Of a stretch of 7,900 bases of DNA, positions 1 through 7,900 are shown one piece after another (within the stretch, counting starts at the first letter, position 1; every line of letters starts with the position of its first letter). The notes under the pieces were generated by a model. That model did no database searches. It was given only the letters and a program-made list of their open reading frames with translations, and was not told the DNA's origin. The translations under genes and the position numbers were made by a program. The stretch comes from a virus. Lineage: Duplodnaviria > Heunggongvirae > Uroviricota > Caudoviricetes. Location of the stretch: IMG/VR virus record IMGVR_UViG_2778261030_000021, positions 1 through 7,900 of that record; one strand, given 5' to 3'.

Positions 1-744
1 GGAAGGTTTAATTACCTGCAACGTACCAAAATCACGCTCTTTGTCGTTCTTCTCTGCACGGGGTACGGATAAAAAGCCTTTTGCTTTTTTGTCACCGTCG
101 CCCACAACCAGATCGCTTTCTTCGGTTTCCGTGAAGGTGTCGCCAATCTCGCCCGTCAGCCATGAAAGGATGTCCACATCGGAAAAATCCACGATTTCCT
201 GCGTGGTGCGCGGGTACGCATAGACCGGATACAGCTTAATGCTCACCTCGTTAATCTGCGGGGTGCTGGTCTGTTCGCGTGCCTTACCCTCTTCACCGTG
301 GTTAACGGTCGCACCGCCAGCGGAAACAAGCTGCTTAAACTCGTTGCTGCTGATTTTCTTCACGGTACAGATGCGGCGCATGGTGGATTCATCCGTCAGC
401 ATTCGCATGATTTCGGTGTTCAGTTCGGGGATAACGGTATAACCACCATCAGCGGGAACGCCTGTACTCAATGCGCGGGTTTCACCTGTCAGAATGTAGT
501 GACGTAGTTCGGCGGGGTCAGTGGTCTGGCTGTTTTTGCCTGGTTTACTGCGCTCTTCGTCAGCAACGGCCTCAAGGCGGGAGATGTCTTTATCGAGTGA
601 TTCAGCTTTAGCGCGTAATTCGTCAAATTTTGCGCCCTCAGCATCGTTAAGGCTGCGGTTTTCTTTTTCCGCGTTCTCCAGCATGTCGCGCATCTGATTT
701 TTAATGGCGGTTTTCTGCTGGCGTAATTCGATTATTCTCGGCAT
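1..744 (-). CDS. Major capsid protein, HK97-fold family (N-terminal ~248 codons; 3' end beyond window start)
   Basis: Minus-strand frame is open from ATG 744..742 to position 1 with no stop, so it is absent from the ORF track. Own translation: MPRIIELRQQKTAIKNQMRDMLENAEKENRSLNDAEGAKFDELRAKAESLDKDISRLEAVADEER... then ...GGYTVIPELNTEIMRMLTDESTMRRICTV...INEVSIKLYPVYAYPRTTQEIVDFSDVDILSWLTGEIGDTFTETEESDLVVGDGDKKAKGFLS. An N-terminal coiled coil followed by these motifs matches my recollection of HK97-type capsid proteins. AGGA lies 8 nt upstream of the ATG. Confidence 0.65.
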   Translation of the reverse strand, partial: MPRIIELRQQKTAIKNQMRDMLENAEKENRSLNDAEGAKFDELRAKAESLDKDISRLEAVADEERSKPGKNSQTTDPAELRHYILTGETRALSTGVPADGGYTVIPELNTEIMRMLTDESTMRRICTVKKISSNEFKQLVSAGGATVNHGEEGKAREQTSTPQINEVSIKLYPVYAYPRTTQEIVDFSDVDILSWLTGEIGDTFTETEESDLVVGDGDKKAKGFLSVPRAEKNDKERDFGTLQVIKPS

Positions 745-781
745 AAAAAAAGTCCTGGGGTTAAGTAAGGAACTCCAGGAC
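745..781 (-). promoter_or_regulatory. Hairpin (stem 752-758 / 775-781, GTCCTGG/CCAGGAC) followed on the minus strand by U7 (751..745) and then the capsid ATG; the capsid Shine-Dalgarno AGGA lies inside the 3' arm
   Basis: Directly read inverted repeat plus T-run. The geometry is that of an intrinsic terminator, but it ends 1 nt before the start codon and sequesters the RBS. Confidence 0.45.
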
Positions 782-956
782 GCGGCAAAAACTCAACCGT
801 TTTTCATAAGGAAATCAGCAATCGCACCGATCGTTTTCCCGCCTGGTAATGAATATTGGCGAGAACATTAACAGGCGGAAAAGTGGCCCCAGCGTCCTGG
901 CACCACGGGCGAGAATAATCATGATTCAGTTCGGGTAAAATATGCCGATCCGCTCA

Positions 957-986
957 GTGAACAACGTGGAACAACCACGAACAAAT
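957..986. repeat. Three 10-bp-phased direct repeats: gtGAACAACg / tgGAACAACc / acGAACAAAt
   Basis: Directly read; copies begin at 959, 969 and 979. Lies in the ORF-poor region upstream (minus-strand sense) of the capsid gene. Confidence 0.5.
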
Positions 987-1003
987 AATTTACAAAAAAT
1001 GAC

Positions 1004-1025
1004 AAAAAGCCGGATTTCTCCGGCT
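1004..1025 (-). terminator. Intrinsic terminator after the 74-aa gene (7-bp stem AGCCGGA/TCCGGCT, 4-nt loop, U-rich tail on minus strand)
   Basis: Hairpin 1008-1025 and A-run 1004-1008 on the plus strand give hairpin-then-U on the minus strand, 11 nt downstream of the stop at 1036-1038. Confidence 0.6.
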
Positions 1026-1035
1026 GTATGGGTGC

Positions 1036-1260
1036 TCAGTCCCTGATCCCTTTCAGAAATTCTATCAATGCATCTATCTGTTCAGGATTTACCGCCAGCA
1101 TTTCACCGGATAGAGCACATCTCACAAAACCATGCTGATCCTTTTCAATCAGTGCGCCCGTCTCCAGGAATGCGCGGTAATCATTGATGCTCATCGTCTC
1201 CATGTTGTCAGCATGGTATTTATCACGCTGTTTTAATATCTCATCAAATTTCATCGGCAT
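1036..1260 (-). CDS. Hypothetical acidic protein, 74 aa
   Basis: ATG at 1260 with AGAGGA about 9 nt upstream; own terminator downstream. No family recognised. Confidence 0.5.
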   Translation of the reverse strand: MPMKFDEILKQRDKYHADNMETMSINDYRAFLETGALIEKDQHGFVRCALSGEMLAVNPEQIDALIEFLKGIRD

Positions 1261-1356
1261 TGTTTTTTTCCTCTGTTGTGTCTGTTTGTTTCAGATAGTA
1301 ACTATGCCTGACCGTGACGAAAACCCGGTAATGCGCCATACCGTTTCAACTGGTGC

Positions 1357-1380
1357 AAAAAAAGCCGGATTTCTCCGGCT
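1357..1380 (-). terminator. Intrinsic terminator after the PerC-like gene; near-identical copy of the 1004-1025 terminator
   Basis: Same AGCCGGATTTCTCCGGCT hairpin (1363-1380) followed on the minus strand by U7 (1357-1363). A 24-bp core is shared between 1004-1027 and 1360-1383. Confidence 0.65.
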
Positions 1381-1386
1381 GTTTGA

Positions 1387-1659
1387 TTAGCTGTCCTGGT
1401 AATTGCGCCATATTTCATCACCAGCACCATCTATACCCATTTCGGCATAAGTGCGATCGACTGCCTTTTTCAGGTCTCCGAAATTATCCGGCGGCTCCGG
1501 TGCCCTCTGTGCCTTCCTTGAACATTCCAGCCGTCGCATCGTGATGTGATGCCGTTCCTTGTCTGTCTCCACCAGCTGCATGACTTCACCCCATCGCGCC
1601 GCCGCCCTCCGGTAAAAGCCTTTCGCCTCCAGTTCCTCCGCTATGCGGTCATGTACCAT
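1387..1659 (-). CDS. PerC-family-like small transcriptional activator, 90 aa (start moved to ATG 1659; the track ORF begins further upstream at a non-ATG codon)
   Basis: MVHDRIAEELEAKGFYRRAAARWGEVM... resembles the AEKLExKGLWRRAA signature I recall for PerC/Pch proteins. Strong SD GAGGGGGGG immediately upstream of ATG 1659. Confidence 0.5.
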   Translation of the reverse strand: MVHDRIAEELEAKGFYRRAAARWGEVMQLVETDKERHHITMRRLECSRKAQRAPEPPDNFGDLKKAVDRTYAEMGIDGAGDEIWRNYQDS

Positions 1660-1669
1660 CGTCCCCCCC

Positions 1670-2080
1670 TCAGAACGAAATATCATCACCGTAAGGGTCA
1701 TCGCCTCCCGCTGGTGGCTGATTACCCTGTGTGCCTGTGGTTTTGCGTCTGTTCCCGCCTGGACGTGCCGCGCGGGCACTGATTACGCTGTCTGCGATAA
1801 CCTGCCAGCCCTGCCGCGTTTCTCCGTTCTGTCCGGCCCACTGGCTTACCTGCATCGTGCCGGATACGCTGGCAACATCGCCTTTTTGATGTTTAGCCAG
1901 GAAGTCGGCCTGTTTGCCAAATGCGATGACCGATAACCATAACGTCGCCTGTCCGTCCTGTGCCTGGCTGCATGGCAACGATACCGCCATACGCGCCAGC
2001 GTCATCGGTGTGCCCTTGCTGGTCTGTTTTACCTGCGGGTCGTCCACCAGCCGCCCGTAAGCGGCTATCTGTGCCGTCAT
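1670..2080 (-). CDS. ssb: Single-stranded DNA-binding protein (SSB-like OB fold), 136 aa
   Basis: Pattern GRLVDDPQV...TLWLSVIAFGKQADFLAKHQKGDVASVSGTMQVSQWAGQNGETRQGWQVIADSV aligns by eye with E. coli SSB (G.L..DPE...W..V.FGK.AE...KG..V..G....W.D.G.R), and the acidic tail DDPYGDDISF resembles the SSB C-terminal DDDIPF tip. ATG 2080 with GAGAGGTGG SD; start overlaps the upstream stop (ATGA). Confidence 0.75.
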   Translation of the reverse strand: MTAQIAAYGRLVDDPQVKQTSKGTPMTLARMAVSLPCSQAQDGQATLWLSVIAFGKQADFLAKHQKGDVASVSGTMQVSQWAGQNGETRQGWQVIADSVISARAARPGGNRRKTTGTQGNQPPAGGDDPYGDDISF

Positions 2081-2322
2081 AATTCCACCTCTCCGGTTTT
2101 AACGTTGATGGTTGTTACCTGTTCCGCTTCGGCAATCTCCCGTTCTGTCAGCGTGGCAAAGTTTGCCGCTGCTGTGGTCATGAATGCGCTTATCAGTTCG
2201 GGATGTGCTTTCGCGTATCCTTCCCCGGCGTTGCGGTCGATGATTTTTATCGCCACCCTCAGCCAGTGTTCTGTCAAATCAAGGGCGTGAGATTGTGGTT
2301 TTTTGGCGTGCTTCGTTGTCAC
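2077..2322 (-). CDS. Hypothetical protein, 81 aa (GTG start)
   Basis: Codon at 2322..2320 is GTG with GAGGT about 9 nt upstream; stop overlaps the ssb start. No family recognised. Confidence 0.45.
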   Translation of the reverse strand: MTTKHAKKPQSHALDLTEHWLRVAIKIIDRNAGEGYAKAHPELISAFMTTAAANFATLTEREIAEAEQVTTINVKTGEVEL

Positions 2323-2367
2323 AGGCTTTACCTCACAGCAATAAAATAAAATTTTTGCATTTCAACC

Positions 2368-2597
2368 CTTCACCTGTTCACCTTTTGCAATTTTCCCTTT
2401 TTATTCATGATGTTAAGGGGTGAACAGTTTCACAAAAACTATTCACCAACTGTTCACCACTGTTCACCCTTAAAGCTCAATAAAGAATCAAAAAGGTGAA
2501 CAGTGAATAGTTTGGTGAACAGTTCATAAATAACTGTTCACCCTATAATATACTGATATAAAAGACATTTATTGCAGGCTGAACAGTGGTGAACAGT
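2368..2597. repeat. Iteron array: at least 9 full copies of the octamer TGTTCACC / GGTGAACA in both orientations plus partial copies; putative replication origin (P4 ori/crr type)
   Basis: Directly read: TGTTCACC at 2375, 2451, 2461 and 2536; GGTGAACA at 2419, 2495, 2514 and 2589; partials at 2368, 2441, 2503 and 2579. The array starts 13 bp beyond the primase stop. As I recall, TGTTCACC is the type I iteron bound by P4 alpha protein. Confidence 0.7.
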
Positions 2598-2609
2598 TAT
2601 TCCATAAGT

Positions 2610-4427
2610 TTAATTTTTTCCATCGTCATTTGTGACCGATGCACATGATGGCATCCAGTCTTCTGAATCCTCTGTCAGGGTCACATTTGAACGCAAACCG
2701 TGCTTCGTTTTCCGTTTCATATACTCCCTGCCATATTCCGCCATTGCCCCCGGCATATCTTTACCGAAGCGCGTCAGTGTTACAGGTTTACCGAATCCGT
2801 GTGCCCTCATATATGCCAGATAGGCGTGATAAAGATACCTGCGCGGACTGAACGGAATAATTTCGGCATTACCCACTAACAGACCATCACACATTACCGA
2901 CGACATGAGATAGCCGCAGAAGTCCACCAGCGAATCGCCCTCGCGTTTTATCACCAGAGCTTCTTCTGATTTCTGCTGCTCATACAGCAGGCGTTTAGCT
3001 TCGTCCTGGTCAGAAAAACGAGTAAGCAGGTGGCGAATCACAACCGCCAGCTCTCCTTCTATTTTTTCTGCCAGCATGGGGTCGCGTTCGTTTTCCGGTA
3101 CAACCTCCGAAAAATTGAATATCACCCGACGACGTGAAATCCCCCCGCTGCGGTCACTGAATGACATGGCGTTATTGTTCACCGCCAACACTACCGCCTG
3201 AATGCGTGTTGAGTAGGGGGCTTTATGCTTCGGGTCGATTGCCACCTTGTCACCGCCTGTAATGGCCTTAATTCCTGCGCCATCACCAGCGTAACGGGTC
3301 ATATCCGGCATGATAATCAGCGAAAAGCCAACCACTAACGCGCGTTCCCTGGCATCTTCCAGCGCCTTCATGCTTGCCGATACCGTGTTGGCCTTACCCG
3401 CCAGCATGGTGCAAATCTCCGCCATCACGCTTTTACCACTTCCCCCTGGACCTGTTACCTCAATGAATAACTGCCAGTCGTACCGGTTCGCCAGCACCAT
3501 GAATAATGCAGCCAGTACGCGATCCGCCTTGCGGTCATTCTCAGCCACCGAACGGCGTAACCACTTCCAGAAATTCGGCGCATGTGTTGCCAGCGTTTCC
3601 CCCTCTGCTGGTGGGCTGAAAGGTAATTCACTGGCAATTAACAACCAGTCGTTTTTGTTATGCTCCCGAAAATTACCTGTTCTGGTATCAAATACCCCGT
3701 TACTGAATCCAATCAGGTTACGGGCTGTATTCCCCATTACAGGCAAACTTAACTTCATGGTATCGACCGCCGATTTAATGGCGTTCTGCGAATAGCTGAT
3801 CTCCGCATCAATGAAAATCTGTGCCATAGCTCGCTGTAATTCTTTATCCTGTACTGGCTCCCATACAACGCCGTTGTAATGGTGAACAGTGTCAGAGTCA
3901 GCATGAATCGCCAGTTCACCGCCATAATGTGCCAGGAGAACTTCGCCGCGTTGACTTGCTCCCATCTGGTTAAGCGCCAGTGATGAAGCGTTATCGTCTT
4001 TTACCCGCTCTTTTTTCTTTACAGGCAGTTCAACTACCTTTTTCTTTTCCGCCTGCTCTGCCCGTTCACGTTCCAGATATTCGCGCCAGTTCTCCCGTTT
4101 CTGGCTGTGCATTCCTTCAGGGTAATAATCAGCATCCCTGACACCTGCCGCTGCCAGTTTCTGCCCGATGGTATTAACAAGCCCCGGACGCAATAACCCC
4201 GCCTGGTAGAGACGCACCCGATAGCGTCCGTCCGGTACGATTTGCAGCTTATCCAGTTCGGCAAGTTGTTGTTCTCCAAGCCAGACAGGAGGCACGCTGT
4301 CGCCAGCCAGTCGCCCGTCCTGTTCCTGCCACTGCTTCGCATGTGCCCACGCATCATTACCCGCAAAAATGATGACTTCCGTCATTTTGTCACGCGGCTG
4401 GTGTTTTAAATTTGGCGCTTTTTTCAT
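2610..4427 (-). CDS. Replication primase-helicase of the P4-alpha / D5 (SF3 helicase) family, 605 aa (start moved from track position 4442 to ATG 4427)
   Basis: Walker A TGPGGSGKS within a D5-like region. The track ORF begins at a GTG (4442); the first ATG (4427..4425, MKKAPNLKHQ...) has GGAGAGAG upstream and overlaps the stop of the preceding gene (ATGA). Confidence 0.85.
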   Translation of the reverse strand: MKKAPNLKHQPRDKMTEVIIFAGNDAWAHAKQWQEQDGRLAGDSVPPVWLGEQQLAELDKLQIVPDGRYRVRLYQAGLLRPGLVNTIGQKLAAAGVRDADYYPEGMHSQKRENWREYLERERAEQAEKKKVVELPVKKKERVKDDNASSLALNQMGASQRGEVLLAHYGGELAIHADSDTVHHYNGVVWEPVQDKELQRAMAQIFIDAEISYSQNAIKSAVDTMKLSLPVMGNTARNLIGFSNGVFDTRTGNFREHNKNDWLLIASELPFSPPAEGETLATHAPNFWKWLRRSVAENDRKADRVLAALFMVLANRYDWQLFIEVTGPGGSGKSVMAEICTMLAGKANTVSASMKALEDARERALVVGFSLIIMPDMTRYAGDGAGIKAITGGDKVAIDPKHKAPYSTRIQAVVLAVNNNAMSFSDRSGGISRRRVIFNFSEVVPENERDPMLAEKIEGELAVVIRHLLTRFSDQDEAKRLLYEQQKSEEALVIKREGDSLVDFCGYLMSSVMCDGLLVGNAEIIPFSPRRYLYHAYLAYMRAHGFGKPVTLTRFGKDMPGAMAEYGREYMKRKTKHGLRSNVTLTEDSEDWMPSCASVTNDDGKN

Positions 4428-4723
4428 TTCTGCTCTCTCCACGCGGCAATCATGTTTTTCAGTTCCTGTAGTTTTTTATCAACATCCATACATGACACAT
4501 GGTTATTTCTGGAAAGCGGGATTTCCCGCCTGAATCTGCTAATAAAGATCTCCACGTTCAGCGAACTATGAAATGAATAGCCATCACGAATAAAATACAC
4601 ACGGTCAAACATCAGTTCTTTTACCGTTACTCTGTTACCGTTCTTATCCAGATAAATAGCGCCGGGGATAATTTTGGGGTGTGCATAACCGCTGGCAGTC
4701 AAGCCAGATAAATACGTTCTCAT
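4424..4723 (-). CDS. Hypothetical protein, 99 aa, translationally coupled to the primase
   Basis: ATG 4723; stop TGA overlaps the primase ATG. No family recognised. Confidence 0.55.
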   Translation of the reverse strand: MRTYLSGLTASGYAHPKIIPGAIYLDKNGNRVTVKELMFDRVYFIRDGYSFHSSLNVEIFISRFRREIPLSRNNHVSCMDVDKKLQELKNMIAAWREQK

Positions 4724-4729
4724 GATTAT

Positions 4730-5050
4730 TTATCTCAGATTTGAATCAGTATTCGCTTTCTCTATGGCATTTAATGCATCTGTGGCATTTTCAATGGTGC
4801 ACCGTAACGAAATATCAAACTGCCCAAGCATTGCCAGTAACAAGCCAATATTACCCATGTCAATGCGCATAGCCTTTTCGTCATATTCCTCATTTTCTGA
4901 CGCATGCCACATCAGGCTACCAATTGACGAAACAGCCATTGATATATTGTCAGTAGCCCCATCCGCAGCGGAATAAACCTTTTTAGCAATATCATGCTCA
5001 CAGTTAAAATGCGGATTAATCAGGTACTGGTAATTGGTCATGTCAGGCAT
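4730..5050 (-). CDS. Hypothetical acidic protein, 106 aa
   Basis: ATG 5050..5048 overlaps the end of the upstream small gene. Strongly acidic composition (about 17 D/E against 7 K/R). Confidence 0.55.
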   Translation of the reverse strand: MPDMTNYQYLINPHFNCEHDIAKKVYSAADGATDNISMAVSSIGSLMWHASENEEYDEKAMRIDMGNIGLLLAMLGQFDISLRCTIENATDALNAIEKANTDSNLR

Positions 5051-5246
5051 GGAACACCCCCTGACGAATACGGGCGGCGAATACCATCACGCAGCCATCA
5101 GGAGATTGCTGACGCGCGTCCTGTTCGCTGGTGGCCTCAATGGTAATCACGCGCGGTTGTGCCGTGCTCAGGGCGATAAAACGCCAGATGTATTTATTCA
5201 GGTTGTGCGAGTCCCGCCCTTGCGGGTGTGTGGTATGATTTAACAT
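5043..5246 (-). CDS. Small first gene of the leftward operon, 67 aa (possibly Icd/Kil-like; function uncertain)
   Basis: ATG 5246..5244 with GAGGT 5-6 nt upstream; MLNHTTHPQGRDSHNLNKYIWRFIALSTAQPRVITIEATSEQDARQQSPDGCVMVFAARIRQGVFHA. It is the C-terminal 67 codons of the 341-aa track ORF, which I reject as a whole. The Icd-like guess rests on position only. Confidence 0.5.
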   Translation of the reverse strand: MLNHTTHPQGRDSHNLNKYIWRFIALSTAQPRVITIEATSEQDARQQSPDGCVMVFAARIRQGVFHA

Positions 5247-5342
5247 AGCTACCTCGATATTCTTGCTATCGTTGGTGGTTAGACGCCCGGTTAGTGTTAG
5301 CGCACTGCCGGGTTTCGTCGTTTCTGCACCTTGCATCAACAA

Positions 5343-5396
5343 GGTGTTTAACACCAATTTAAGCCCTGGTGTTAAACACGTCAAGTGTTGAACACT
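5343..5396. promoter_or_regulatory. Three 13-bp palindromic operator-like sites (G/A)GTGTT-N-AACAC(C/T) in the divergent promoter region
   Basis: Directly read: 5343-5355 GGTGTTTAACACC (perfect), 5368-5380 GGTGTTAAACACG (one mismatch), 5384-5396 AGTGTTGAACACT (perfect). The third overlaps a plus-strand -35-like TTGAAC (5388-5393), with a weak -10 CATACT at 5411-5416. Confidence 0.55.
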
Positions 5397-5445
5397 TATT
5401 TTTTTTCCTGCATACTGCATTTGTTTTTTGTAAGGGGTACACAAC

Positions 5446-5625
5446 ATGGCGACAAAAGCAGTAAACGCAAAATCACAAACAGTTGCGGCAAGGGTTCCGC
5501 ATGAAGTTATGAACAATGTTGAGGCGGTAAAAATGCCTGGTGAAAGTACAGGGCAGTTTGTAACAGCAGCATTAAAGCGAGAAGTTGAATACCGCCAGCG
5601 TCGCAAGGCCAAAGAGCAGGAATAA
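5446..5625 (+). CDS. Small DNA-binding protein, probable ribbon-helix-helix fold, 59 aa
   Basis: Below the track's size cut-off. ATG 5446 with AAGGGG 8 nt upstream; MATKAVNAKSQTVAARVPHEVMNNVEAVKMPGESTGQFVTAALKREVEYRQRRKAKEQE. Beta-strand (TVAARVP), helix, Gly turn, helix pattern typical of Arc/CopG-type proteins. Confidence 0.5.
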   Translation: MATKAVNAKSQTVAARVPHEVMNNVEAVKMPGESTGQFVTAALKREVEYRQRRKAKEQE

Positions 5626-5682
5626 CCATCACCAGCGCCGTGGTGTAAGGTATTACGGCGCATTGCTATGCAGGACAACACA

Positions 5683-5856
5683 ATGACCGATAAAGAATTG
5701 ACCAAAACATTATCACCGGCACGGAAAAGACGGCGCAGAAAGATAGAGCATGAATCAGAAAGATTCGCGCCATGTGCTTTTGCCCTTGAGCAATTCCTTA
5801 AAGAGTACAGGGAAAAGCGCTCATTGCAGGTATGGCAACGAACTGAACCAGACTGA
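5683..5856 (+). CDS. Hypothetical Arg-rich small protein, 57 aa
   Basis: ATG 5683 with AGGA 7 nt upstream (the track's longer ORF starts at 5668). Contains ARKRRRRK; rare AGA/AGG/CGG codons. Confidence 0.4.
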   Translation: MTDKELTKTLSPARKRRRRKIEHESERFAPCAFALEQFLKEYREKRSLQVWQRTEPD

Positions 5857-5950
5857 TAGCATTGCCCACCAGCCTGATAGCGACTATCATTGCCGTTCTT
5901 ATGTTTGGGATCACACACACAAACGGCGCAGCGGGTTATCTGTTCAGAAA

Positions 5951-5979
5951 GGCGGCTCCATTTCGGGGCCGCTTTTTTT
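5951..5979 (+). terminator. Intrinsic terminator of the plus-strand two-gene unit
   Basis: Stem 5952-5959 GCGGCTCC pairs with 5965-5972 GGGGCCGC (one G-U), 5-nt loop, then T7 at 5973-5979. Confidence 0.7.
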
Positions 5980-6120
5980 ATTCCTGAAAAACCCCAATTT
6001 TGTTGTTTTTCAGTTTCACCAGGGCGAACGAATCCCCGCCCACGTTCGGGCGCATATTCAATCTTCATGGTTATATCTCTGTATTAGTGGATGTGTGGCG
6101 GCTGCGTGCCGCCAGCGTGA

Positions 6121-6309
6121 TTAATGAACTGCCTTGCAGCTATCCTTCCAGGCCAGAACCTCGGATAAAGACCAGCCAACGGAACGACCGCCAAGTTTAC
6201 GACGTGATGGGAATTGTCCGGCCTTTTCCAGGCGGTAGCGGCATGAGCGGCTAAGGCCTGTTAGCTTTTCGCATTCTTTTTCACGTATAAACCGATCAGT
6301 GCTTAACAC
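6121..6309 (-). CDS. alpA: AlpA-family phage transcriptional regulator / excisionase-like HTH protein, 62 aa (GTG start)
   Basis: EKLTGLSRSCRYRLEKAGQFPSRRKLGGRSVGWSLSEVLAW matches the AlpA signature I recall (TG.SRST.Y......FP....LG.R.V.W...E...W). GTG at 6309..6307 with AAGGGG 5 nt upstream; no in-frame ATG is available. Confidence 0.8.
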   Translation of the reverse strand: MLSTDRFIREKECEKLTGLSRSCRYRLEKAGQFPSRRKLGGRSVGWSLSEVLAWKDSCKAVH

Positions 6310-6590
6310 TATTGCCCCTTTCGTTTCTTAAAGAGTTATTTCGTGTTCTATTGCGTTGGGATGTGTCTGATTGTGTCAGGATGATTCAGAGTTGGCAAAT
6401 GTTGAGGACGTATGGTTTACAGAAAGAGGAATAATCAGGATAAAATCATTTAAATTCATGTTAATACAAAGGCATAAAATATTGTTTCATGCCTTTTTTC
6501 TCGCTATTTAAAGAGTGATTCGCTAGTGTATAAAAAACCAGTAACACATTAAAAATCAGCCACTTATAAATCTGTACACTTTTTCGCCTC

Positions 6591-6640
6591 TTGTTCGTAG
6601 TTGTTCCGCATTGTTGCTCATTGTTGCACGTTGTATCTGT
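6591..6640. repeat. Five 10-bp-phased direct repeats beginning TTGTT (TTGTTCGTAG / TTGTTCCGCA / TTGTTGCTCA / TTGTTGCACG / TTGTATCTGT)
   Basis: Directly read, exact 10-bp register, between the integrase stop and the alpA upstream region. Confidence 0.5.
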
Positions 6641-6649
6641 TCGCATATC

Positions 6650-6665
6650 CAGTATGCGCATACTG
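6650..6665. repeat. Perfect 16-bp palindrome CAGTATGCGCATACTG
   Basis: Directly read. Lies 18 bp beyond the integrase stop and is flanked by A/T runs. Confidence 0.55.
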
Positions 6666-6682
6666 AAAAAATACGAAAAAAA

Positions 6683-7900
6683 TTATTTTCTTCTGGCTAC
6701 TGGTAGCGTGGTTACGTTTTCATGTGTTCCCGCCAGTATCCCTAACCGCTCCATCCACATATCCAGCGCATTGCGTTTAGCATCCAGATAACGGGAATGA
6801 TTATAAACTCGCTGCATTCCTGGCATCTGGTGGCCTGTAAGCTGCTCCACGACATGCGGATCAACGCCTAAATCGTTCAGCATGGTTGTAAAGGTGCGCC
6901 GGATGTCATGCAGTGACCAGTGAGGGTGATTAAGCCTCCTGTGCGCTAATCTTCCATACTGCGATACGCTGGCCTCCTGTTTCACTGCCCCCAGCAATAA
7001 GCCCGTGTGCCTGTTCTGCTCCACCAGCTGCGTGACGAACGGCAGGATCGCTTCCGGTATGGGCCGGAATATTGCGACCTTCGTTTTGCTGTGCTCCTTC
7101 GGAACGGTCCATAGCATTTCCGTAAAATCCCACTCCCCGATCTCTGATAACCTCAGTTCTACCGTTCTGGCTCCGAAGACAATCAGGAGGCGGATTAACG
7201 CGACGTAGTAAGGGGAAAATATTTTTTTATCCAGCGCCTGCAATAACTCGCCCAGTTCTTTGGTGCTTAAGACACGTTCGCTTATATCCGGTTTTTTCCC
7301 AACGTCCGCCACGTTCAGATCGTCCAGAACGTTGCTGATTGCATAGCGCCGCCTACGGCAGAACTTAAGCGCCTGTTTGCACGCCTGTAGCACGAATCCG
7401 GCAGTAACAGGCGTTCGCTTTGCCACCTGGTCAAAACAGGCCAGCCAGTGCCGTAGCTCGCATTTATCCAGCGGCATAGCACCAATCTGCTGTATTACGT
7501 GATTATTAAGTCGCCTTTTCAGGGCGATATAATCCACGCGGTTTTCCTTTACGTAAGACTCAAGCCAGTAGGTGAGCGCATCGCCAACCGTTACGGGCTT
7601 TAACGCTTCCTGTACGGTGTAATTCATCTCATGACGTGGATTTTTCCCCTCAGCCAGCCATGCGCGGCACTGGGCGGCTTTTTCCCTGGCTGCTTTCAGA
7701 CTCAGATCAGGATAATTTCCCAGCTTAATACGTTCCGGTCGTGTCTCTCTTCCCGTTCCTGCCCTGTAAGTGAAATACCAGGTTAATTTCCCTGATGTTA
7801 AATATTTCACGCTCAGATTTCCGCCATCGCTATAAAACGTGTTTTTCTCCGCTGGCTTACCATGAAGTTTCCTTAGCAATGTGTCGCTCAGTTTGTTCAT
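6683..7900 (-). CDS. int: Tyrosine recombinase / phage integrase (P4-type), 405 aa
   Basis: 405-aa ORF starting with ATG exactly at the window edge (the true start could lie upstream). Integrase-like C-terminal region including HDIRRTFTT and the tail ...MQRVYNHSRYLDAKRNALDMW with candidate catalytic Tyr. Confidence 0.88.
   Translation of the reverse strand: MNKLSDTLLRKLHGKPAEKNTFYSDGGNLSVKYLTSGKLTWYFTYRAGTGRETRPERIKLGNYPDLSLKAAREKAAQCRAWLAEGKNPRHEMNYTVQEALKPVTVGDALTYWLESYVKENRVDYIALKRRLNNHVIQQIGAMPLDKCELRHWLACFDQVAKRTPVTAGFVLQACKQALKFCRRRRYAISNVLDDLNVADVGKKPDISERVLSTKELGELLQALDKKIFSPYYVALIRLLIVFGARTVELRLSEIGEWDFTEMLWTVPKEHSKTKVAIFRPIPEAILPFVTQLVEQNRHTGLLLGAVKQEASVSQYGRLAHRRLNHPHWSLHDIRRTFTTMLNDLGVDPHVVEQLTGHQMPGMQRVYNHSRYLDAKRNALDMWMERLGILAGTHENVTTLPVARRK

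Follow-up and report, generated by a model that had tools for sequence, protein, structure and literature searches.

The stretch of DNA analyzed here, 7,900 nucleotides (nt) at positions 1 to 7,900 of the IMG/VR virus record IMGVR_UViG_2778261030_000021 (hereafter, the window), covers the left half of a capsid-forming phage-inducible chromosomal island (cf-PICI) of the EcCIEDL933/Sp7 type, residing in Escherichia coli. On the minus strand of the window, three small genes are arranged in series ahead of a replicase gene (2610-4427): gene 1 (5043-5246), which is the first gene of the early operon and encodes an Icd-like protein of 67 amino acids (aa); gene 2 (4730-5050), which encodes an acidic protein of 106 aa and fills a variable slot of the operon; and gene 3 (4424-4723), which encodes a basic 99-aa protein (pI 9.7) of the DUF4222 family. 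The Shine-Dalgarno (SD) sequence GAGG lies 5 nt 5' of the ATG of gene 1. Opposite this ribosome-binding site, on the plus strand, is a candidate cis-antisense small RNA of about 80 nt (5243-5326), complementary to the SD sequence and the 5' untranslated region (UTR) of the Icd-like gene. The three open reading frames (ORFs) are real genes and ordinary members of a known operon type, and the operon is a further case of that type; the candidate antisense RNA over the Icd start is an unplanned result and the one that most deserves experiment.

Three small genes ahead of a satellite replicase

E. coli chromosomes match the 7.9-kb window with identities of 95-99.5%. The family definition and the gene set of capsid-forming islands are taken here from the description of EcCIEDL933 (10.1101/2022.09.08.507074): int, alpA and a replicase gene, combined with capsid and packaging genes of the island's own, in about 15 kb. 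The window supplies int, alpA and the replicase; the remaining genes are annotated in the flank of a 97.6%-identical locus (L001) and in Sp7, the prophage-like element of strain Sakai, which has the same architecture as the window island. In the best full-length match, the genes of the minus strand follow the order integrase, AlpA-type regulator, Icd-like protein, hypothetical protein, DUF4222, 'DNA primase family protein', small ORF, single-stranded DNA-binding protein (SSB), PerC-family regulator, major capsid protein, prohead protease, portal, head closure, connector, HNH, and the small and large terminase subunits. From the match in size and gene content, we infer that Sp7, CP-933C and O-island 51 (OI-51) are the same element as EcCIEDL933, an equation that is ours and is unstated in the cited sources. 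The three-gene cassette is present at a coverage of at least 80% in 466 of the 5426 complete E. coli genomes (about 9%), and the Icd-like part is matched in 1401 of them (about a quarter). Neither tblastn searches with the 106-aa and 99-aa proteins nor a blastn search with the region yielded a match among 50,697 phage records.

The ORFs and most of the junctions described in an earlier note on this DNA, made from the sequence alone, hold at the coordinates given there. Genes 1 and 2 overlap by 8 nt (ATGCCTGA at 5043-5050), with the stop codon of the 67-aa gene at 5043-5045 and the start codon of the 106-aa gene at 5048-5050, and gene 3 overlaps the replicase by the ATGA at 4424-4427, as RefSeq also annotates in sister elements. 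The overlap that had been placed at 4723-4732 turned out to be a gap: the TAA of gene 2 (4730-4732) and the ATG of gene 3 (4721-4723) are separated by the 6-nt spacer ATAATC (4724-4729), so the two genes abut. The replicase starts with an ATG; the ORF listing gives a GTG at 4442. A purine-rich stretch, located inside the upstream gene, precedes each start. Such overlaps are the rule in phage operons. The overlapping stop and start codons would permit translational coupling but are no proof of the fixed stoichiometry with the replication protein that the earlier note had read from them.

Homologues exist for all three small genes. Among the 20-21 distinct alleles of the cassette, the variable sites are distributed over the three codon positions as 15/10/24 in the 106-aa gene and 14/8/26 in the 99-aa gene. 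The same note had listed the three genes as unassigned, a description that still applies to the 106-aa gene, which belongs to no family with a function, and no longer to the other two. The 67-aa protein matches the NCBIfam family NF033153, phage_ICD_like (68.1 bits, cut-off 25, E 5e-19, residues 19-62), and the 99-aa protein matches the Pfam family PF13973, DUF4222 (61.1 bits, gathering score 27, E 7e-17, residues 16-67).

The conserved leader motif retrieved 120 loci from IMG/VR, in which 100 operons could be traced as far as a replicase by following chains of ORFs that start at the leader ATG. The pattern in these 100 operons consists of an Icd-like gene (64-69 aa), a variable middle, a DUF4222 gene (~99 aa) and the replicase. 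DUF4222 is located directly upstream of the replicase in 96 of the 100 and overlaps it in 95 of these 96. The middle slot, in contrast to these fixed positions, holds 7 families in 23 architectures across the 96 operons. The 106-aa gene occurs in 27 of the 100 operons, in 24 of which it is the sole filler of the slot; it travels together with the window-type DUF4222 allele and is never found together with families 0, 1, 3 or 5 (the ECs1578/1579/1580 type). These counts support the view of a hypervariable slot between the Icd-like gene and DUF4222, the pattern expected of accessory or arms-race genes.

The position of the operon is equivalent to that of the left operon of satellite P4, as the earlier note had recognized. 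The order of the P4 genes is (kil/eta ORF)-epsilon-orf151-orf106 (cnr)-alpha, with the same kind of 8-nt overlaps, and the window resembles it in the order and overlap style of the small genes ahead of an alpha-type replicase as well as in the TGTTCACC repeats of the origin. The two differ in that the 106-aa and 99-aa proteins have no detectable similarity to epsilon, orf151 or cnr, in that the window replicase lacks the primase domain of alpha, and in that the window element, as a cf-PICI, brings capsid and terminase genes of its own.

The replicase contains the Pfam domains D5_N, DUF5906 and Pox_D5 from residue 167 onward and is 50% identical to P4 alpha over residues 320-776 only, the helicase and origin-binding part. 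Residues 1-150 have no Pfam match at E <= 10 and no counterpart of the alpha primase domain; an N-terminal domain of about 145 aa stands in its place. This window-type domain is found in the replicases of 98 of the 100 related operons, joined to different C-terminal modules, namely P4-alpha-like, DUF927-type (~710 aa) and a third kind of ~465 aa. Between the replicase gene and the next ORF, at 2375-2595, the octamer TGTTCACC occurs 8 times without a mismatch, on either strand, and at no more than one mismatch, it has 18 matches, against 6.5 expected, which cluster in the same interval. The annotation of P4 includes 8-bp 'ori type 1 repeats', the octamer of which we take to read TGTTCACC. The repeats fit with the 50% identity between the replicase and the helicase and DNA-binding part of alpha, and 2375-2595 is probably the origin of replication. 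Matches to Rfam microRNA families at 2424-2537 were rejected as RNAs; they are origin iterons.

The slot protein and the neighbor of the replicase

The 106-aa protein is acidic, as had been noted (16 D+E against 7 K+R, net charge -9, pI 4.46). It belongs to phrog_15327, the function of which is not annotated, and has no Pfam match (E <= 10), no NCBIfam match and no PADLOC match. With the single sequence as query, an exhaustive HMMER search across 1.84 billion representatives recovered about 10 true relatives of ~100 aa; three long repeat proteins (TPR-like and others) that appeared in the same search were judged to be spurious, repeat-inflated matches. A profile search with the family extended it to more than 100 clusters, including those from Klebsiella, Erwinia, Raoultella, Serratia and Phytobacter, and Rahnella, Pantoea and Gilliamella joined it when one genome was scanned for each species; the homologues from Klebsiella, Serratia, Erwinia, Pantoea, Rahnella and Gilliamella are 95-106 aa long. 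For many homologues (Klebsiella, Erwinia, Serratia and others), NCBI and UniRef give the name 'ubiquinol-cytochrome C reductase', probably a propagated misannotation, given that no family match supports the name. In every locus examined, the gene belongs to a chain of small overlapping ORFs beside the Icd-like gene, and in all but two of these loci, it is flanked by an integrase, AlpA and a D5/P4-alpha-type replicase; the two exceptions, both from Rahnella, encode a cI-type repressor and a convergent integrase and have no replicase within 5 kb. The 106-aa protein is a member of an uncharacterized family of ~100 residues from satellites of Enterobacterales and Gilliamella.

A separate observation concerns three Klebsiella pneumoniae contigs (L007-L009), in which a block of ~7 kb is located between phage capsid genes and tail (Dit-like) genes. 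The block contains an integrase, a second integrase-like gene, isrK, C4, a gene of the 106-aa family, DUF4222 and the replicase, and looks like a minimal satellite inserted within the structural region of a prophage.

The AlphaFold (AF2) model of the 106-aa protein is an antiparallel hairpin of two helices (19-51 and 58-105; pLDDT 84), and the near-invariant residues of the family, G44, L46, M47, Y56, D64, M65, G69 and L72, are grouped around its tip. Foldseek comparison of this model with the PDB and with the viral models of BFVD returned generic helical hairpins only, at E > 0.3, and a sequence search of the PDB with the profiles of the 106-aa and DUF4222 families gave no match.

The same note had considered the small genes as effectors directed at the helper, with the 106-aa protein acting as an antagonist of the helper repressor (an epsilon-like function) or as a DNA-mimic anti-defense protein, and the 99-aa protein as an induction or interference factor. 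The 106-aa gene indeed comes next after the Icd-like gene and overlaps it by 8 nt, a position that epsilon takes in P4, its product has a net charge of -9, and it occupies a hypervariable cassette slot typical of arms-race genes. Furthermore, helical-hairpin proteins such as TraM, which is among the non-significant structural neighbors of the model, are anti-activators. However, the similarity that such a role would lead one to expect did not emerge. With P4 epsilon/Ash, the 106-aa protein gave no BLASTP alignment, an hhalign probability of 0.1% and no match to the Pfam Ash family; the 106-aa family has no detectable similarity to P4 orf151 or cnr, and its profile has none to ECs1580 or to cassette families 0, 1/5 and 3. 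As for DNA mimicry, the net charge of -9 is combined with a plain two-helix hairpin that has no PDB or BFVD match at E < 0.1 and no fold match to a known DNA mimic or anti-defense protein. The labels 'anti-repressor' and 'DNA mimic' derive from charge alone and are not supported. The direction of control points the other way as well, because the helper induces cf-PICIs through AlpA, and not the reverse (10.1101/2022.09.08.507074), and the 99-aa protein is a constant, not a variable, member of the operon. We therefore regard this set of roles as unlikely.

By position, the counterpart of the 99-aa protein is RgdR, the product of ECs1581 in Sp7. The two proteins have the same length and are 31% identical over the full 99 aa, and in Sp7, ECs1581 is located immediately 5' of the replicase gene ECs1582, with a 4-nt overlap (5101-5104 of the Sp7 locus, L025), as in the window. 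The likeness thus includes the DUF4222 family, the length of 99 aa, the basic character and the place directly upstream of the replicase of the same island type, with an ATGA overlap. The differences are the identity of only 31%, the tripeptide at residues 20-22, which is PGA in the window protein, where the RGD of RgdR is absent, and the company of the 106-aa gene instead of an ECs1578-1580-type cassette. RgdR of E. coli O157:H7 (ECs1581, Sp7/OI-51) activates LEE1, a part of the enterocyte effacement locus (LEE), a virulence island, and represses motility (Flockhart et al. 2012, PMC3378721; PMC10877973). It binds DNA non-specifically in electrophoretic mobility shift assays (EMSA), and the RGD at residues 20-22 is reported to be important for LEE activation (PMC3378721); the effects on LEE1 and motility and the DNA binding are established for ECs1581 and C1493 only (PMC3378721).

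In the AlphaFold model of the DUF4222 protein, which is based on a shallow alignment (pLDDT 67), a small beta-barrel (23-56) is followed by a C-terminal helix (78-97). The best Foldseek neighbors are SH3-like barrels of the KOW, Tudor and PWWP types (E 0.02-0.1), so that the modeled barrel would fit a nucleic-acid- or protein-binding module without being diagnostic of one. No alignment was obtained between the 99-aa protein and P4 orf106 (Cnr, DUF5375), and the position directly upstream of the replicase is the sole feature that they have in common.

The Icd-like gene and the candidate RNA opposite its start

In addition to NF033153, the 67-aa protein matches PHROG 6196 and 1743, which the PHROGs database labels 'transcriptional repressor'. 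This label was probably inherited from the old 'cI gene product' ORF of P4, which RefSeq still names a transcriptional repressor and which overlaps the real CI/C4 RNA. By homology to Icd of phage P1, the Icd-like protein would be a cell-division inhibitor or a growth-arrest effector. At a prophage-like locus of strain ECOR61 that consists of an Icd-like gene, small neighbors and a primase, growth is arrested upon expression of a phage accessory gene; the effect is abolished without the Icd-like gene, and transposon suppressors map to this gene and also to two adjacent small genes (10.1101/2023.04.06.535777).

The ECOR61 study mentions a 'long N-terminal extension' of the Icd-like protein (10.1101/2023.04.06.535777). 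In the window, a 341-aa ORF (5043-6068, minus strand) is in frame with the Icd-like gene and antisense to two plus-strand genes, and at the position of this ORF, RefSeq annotates long 'Icd-like' proteins or pseudogenes in sister genomes. We rejected the 341-aa ORF as a real gene because the stretch upstream of the ATG at 5246 is taken up by promoter, operators and the divergent YlcI gene and because leader variants differ by indels of 1 and 2 nt. For the same reasons, the extension in ECOR61, the long RefSeq calls and the 341-aa ORF are most likely all annotation artefacts.

The candidate RNA on the opposite strand has a predicted start near 5247. In all 80 of the 80 distinct leader variants, the antisense strand folds better than the mRNA strand, with mean energies of -36.8 and -22.9 kcal/mol, respectively. 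RNAalifold, applied to 34 diverse variants, predicts a 5' hairpin with the anti-SD sequence and, as a terminator, a GC-rich 3' hairpin that runs into a U-rich tail. Of the 19 pairs in this consensus, 6 have compensatory double changes; 97% of the cells are paired, compared to at most 52% when the partners are slid, and none of 500 shuffles reached the observed covariation. An extended -10 element, TGgTATGAT (5231-5239, plus strand), precedes the predicted RNA start by 7 nt and falls within codons 3-5 of the Icd-like gene; Serratia, Pantoea, Gilliamella and Sp7 have TATGAT, TATCAT or TAGACT at an equal distance, although their codons at this place differ. A covariance model, R1, built from the E. 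coli-type variants, scores 89 bits in the window, a circular result given that the near-identical sister sequence L001 is in the model; in the Serratia, Pantoea and Gilliamella loci, which are outside the model, its scores are 48-81 bits, in every case on the strand antisense to the operon. An R1 search of P4 did not find the element. Taken together, these features make the leader a candidate for a conserved structured RNA that is encoded on the strand opposite the early operon, over the ribosome-binding site of the Icd-like gene. A GC-rich inverted repeat, CCCGCCCTTGCGGG, which is conserved at the nucleotide level among the E. coli variants, is also present at 5213-5228 (codons 7-12 of the Icd-like gene), close to the antisense -10 element on its upstream side.

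Inverted repeats fold on either strand, and the structure could instead be a 5'-UTR element of the mRNA or a protein-binding inverted repeat at the DNA level, for example, for AlpA, with the genes co-transcribed and not controlled by an RNA. Such a view would also accommodate an antisense promoter that is a consensus match and an Rfam match that is weak (see below). However, the strand can be read from the substitutions: 155 of the 800 consensus pair cells are G.U on the antisense strand and C.A, that is, mismatches, on the mRNA strand. In addition, a U-tract follows the hairpin on the antisense strand only, and the -10 motif keeps a fixed distance across genera while the codons that it overlaps change, all of which makes this alternative distinctly improbable.

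The RNA has no match above threshold in Rfam 15, and no description of it was found in the literature searched. A full-length match to SymR (RF01809) extends over 5247-5319 on the plus strand (28.4 bits, E 0.036). Like the SymR/SymE and other type I pairs, the window combines a candidate cis-antisense RNA of ~77-84 nt with the start codon of a potentially toxic small protein, covering the SD sequence; with SymR, it also shares the architecture of two hairpins and the loop GUGUUnGCGCAC, which is common to both in the full-length alignment. Unlike in the SymE pair, the putative target is Icd-like and heads a long operon instead of standing alone, and 28 bits is far below the gathering threshold of 61.

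In P1, P7 and P4, the genes of the Icd type are controlled by the trans-acting c4/CI antisense RNA. The window gene resembles them in its family match by hidden Markov model (HMM), in its place as the first gene of the early operon and in a candidate RNA regulator at the start of translation, but differs in that the RNA candidate is cis-encoded on the opposite strand and in that C4/CI and isrK are not present in the window. The earlier note had pointed to the leader as a place where a P4 CI-like antisense RNA might be found. Rfam searches of the window at E <= 1 gave no match to C4/P4 CI RNA (RF01695) or isrK (RF01394), and the conserved element that the leader does contain differs in kind and lies on the opposite strand. 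The positive controls were recovered, with C4 scores of 75 bits in P4, 82 bits in a locus of E. coli strain 167 (L005) and 75 bits in one of the Klebsiella contigs (L007); P4 and the Klebsiella element gave isrK matches as well. L005 has the same three-gene cassette and carries both the leader element and the C4 system, the latter scoring 82 bits for C4 and 75 bits for isrK at 6857-7045. By alignment, the window corresponds to L005 minus ~330 bp with isrK and C4, between the conserved leader and the Icd core, and a short upstream ORF of L005 is the counterpart of the first 18 codons of the window Icd-like gene. Control of the window leader in trans by sibling C4 RNAs was considered and rejected, given that RNAduplex pairing is no better than that of shuffles. 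The int-alpA RNA (RF02996) is found at 468-536 of a Pantoea satellite (L022) with 42 bits and has no such match in the window.

Upstream of the leader, a sigma-70-like promoter of the early operon (5356-5384, minus strand; TTGACG, 17 nt, TAAATT) is predicted by consensus match only. It is bracketed by three palindromic operators, GTGTTnAACAC, at 5344-5354, 5369-5379 and 5385-5395; the palindrome has 4 matches, compared to 0.12 expected. The divergent gene at 5446-5625 on the plus strand encodes a 59-aa protein of the YlcI/YnfO family (NF041551, E 2e-16). In a sister island, the palindrome at this place reads GTGTCnGACAC and the YlcI/YnfO allele is another one, and this joint difference in palindrome and allele suggests that the YlcI-family protein could be the island repressor of the early promoter, with allele-specific operators. 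The fourth match, the near-copy GTGCTTAACAC at 6299-6309, coincides with the start codon of alpA; the coincidence may be fortuitous or may tie alpA expression to the repressor.

Induction of the island and its possible gates

From the gene identities, the synteny, the variable slot, and the structure and strand of the RNA, we infer functions for the parts of the operon as follows. The early promoter would fire upon AlpA expression triggered by the helper, combined with the loss of repression, and the Icd-like protein would arrest division. Its expression would be doubly gated, by the three palindromic operators at the promoter and by the cis-antisense RNA over the SD sequence and 5' UTR; in the uninduced state, the RNA would block leaky translation of the Icd-like gene, a role parallel to that of the c4/CI RNA of P1, P7 and P4 or of a type I antitoxin RNA. 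The 106-aa slot protein, one of several small helical proteins that exclude one another from this recombination-shuffled slot, would most likely bind a host or helper-phage protein via the conserved tip of the hairpin. The DUF4222 protein, which would be made in step with the replicase, would most likely be a nucleic-acid-binding cofactor or regulator that aids or regulates initiation at the TGTTCACC origin, in the manner of Cnr, the regulator of P4 alpha. In favor of such a role are the near-constant place of its gene beside the replicase, the N-terminal domain that the replicases retain while their C-terminal modules vary, one in-frame fusion of the two proteins, the non-specific DNA binding of RgdR and the predicted barrel fold. 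The effects of RgdR on LEE and motility would then be a by-product of DNA binding.

On balance, we lean toward this picture, in which a cf-PICI has a helper-induced early (replication) operon, laid out like the left operon of P4, with the three small genes nearest to the promoter and in the roles assigned above. Several points weigh against it. The 120 loci were picked by the leader motif and are accordingly related and non-independent, and the motif region itself is unusable as evidence of conservation. The 67-aa Icd-like gene shows no third-position excess among the same alleles in which the other two genes do (14/15/19 by codon position). The promoter of the antisense RNA is a consensus match only, and the SymR score falls short of the gathering threshold. 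The partnership between DUF4222 and the replicase is not universal because a different small gene precedes the replicase in Serratia, Pantoea and Gilliamella. The type of DUF4222 and the N-terminal type of the replicase co-vary weakly (adjusted mutual information, AMI, 0.32), and we do not use this co-variation as evidence of interaction. The in-frame fusion that speaks for this partnership, in which an RgdR-type DUF4222 and the replicase form one protein of 700 aa (L006, 3235-5337), is the single case among the 100 operons; its junction is an A-run, and the fusion may come from a sequencing error in this homopolymer. Finally, the confidence of the DUF4222 model is only moderate, and the published phenotypes of RgdR are transcriptional, not replicative.

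The ECOR61 results bring up yet another possibility, namely, that the Icd-like gene, the small genes and the replicase form an abortive-infection or superinfection-exclusion module, in which a phage protein is the trigger and the cell is killed or arrested for the benefit of the population. The ECOR61 locus acts in this way, with all six linked genes, primase included, needed for reconstitution, and its suppressors fall in the Icd-like gene and two small neighbors (10.1101/2023.04.06.535777). Yet the small genes of ECOR61 (~62-64 aa) represent an alternative type of cassette and not the 106-aa family, and PADLOC returned no matches. Ordinary satellite induction, with the trigger gene as the inducer, explains the ECOR61 results too, such that the abortive-infection scheme overlaps with the helper-induced early operon that we favor; as an account of its own, it seems quite improbable.

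A tentative extension of the early-operon picture, which we put forward as a possibility that is not the expected outcome, is that the conserved antisense RNA serves as an induction gate resembling type I toxin-antitoxin systems in cf-PICI and P4-like satellites of Enterobacterales and Orbales and defines specificity groups among them, and that RgdR was originally a cofactor of the replicase. If this is the case, the sequences of the terminator hairpin, variable but always compensated, would set the specificity ('immunity') groups among co-resident islands.

RgdR has been treated for more than ten years as a virulence regulator of a 'cryptic prophage', and its placement as the constant gene, coupled to the replicase, of a functional satellite changes the reading of its phenotypes. 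The shuffled slot, in turn, is a compact place to seek proteins that mediate interactions between satellite and helper or between satellite and host. The cf-PICIs and their relatives are very common, and how their early operons are silenced and fired is poorly understood. The antisense RNA, if expressed, would provide a mechanism for silencing a toxic first gene and may govern the cross-talk between islands that share a cell.

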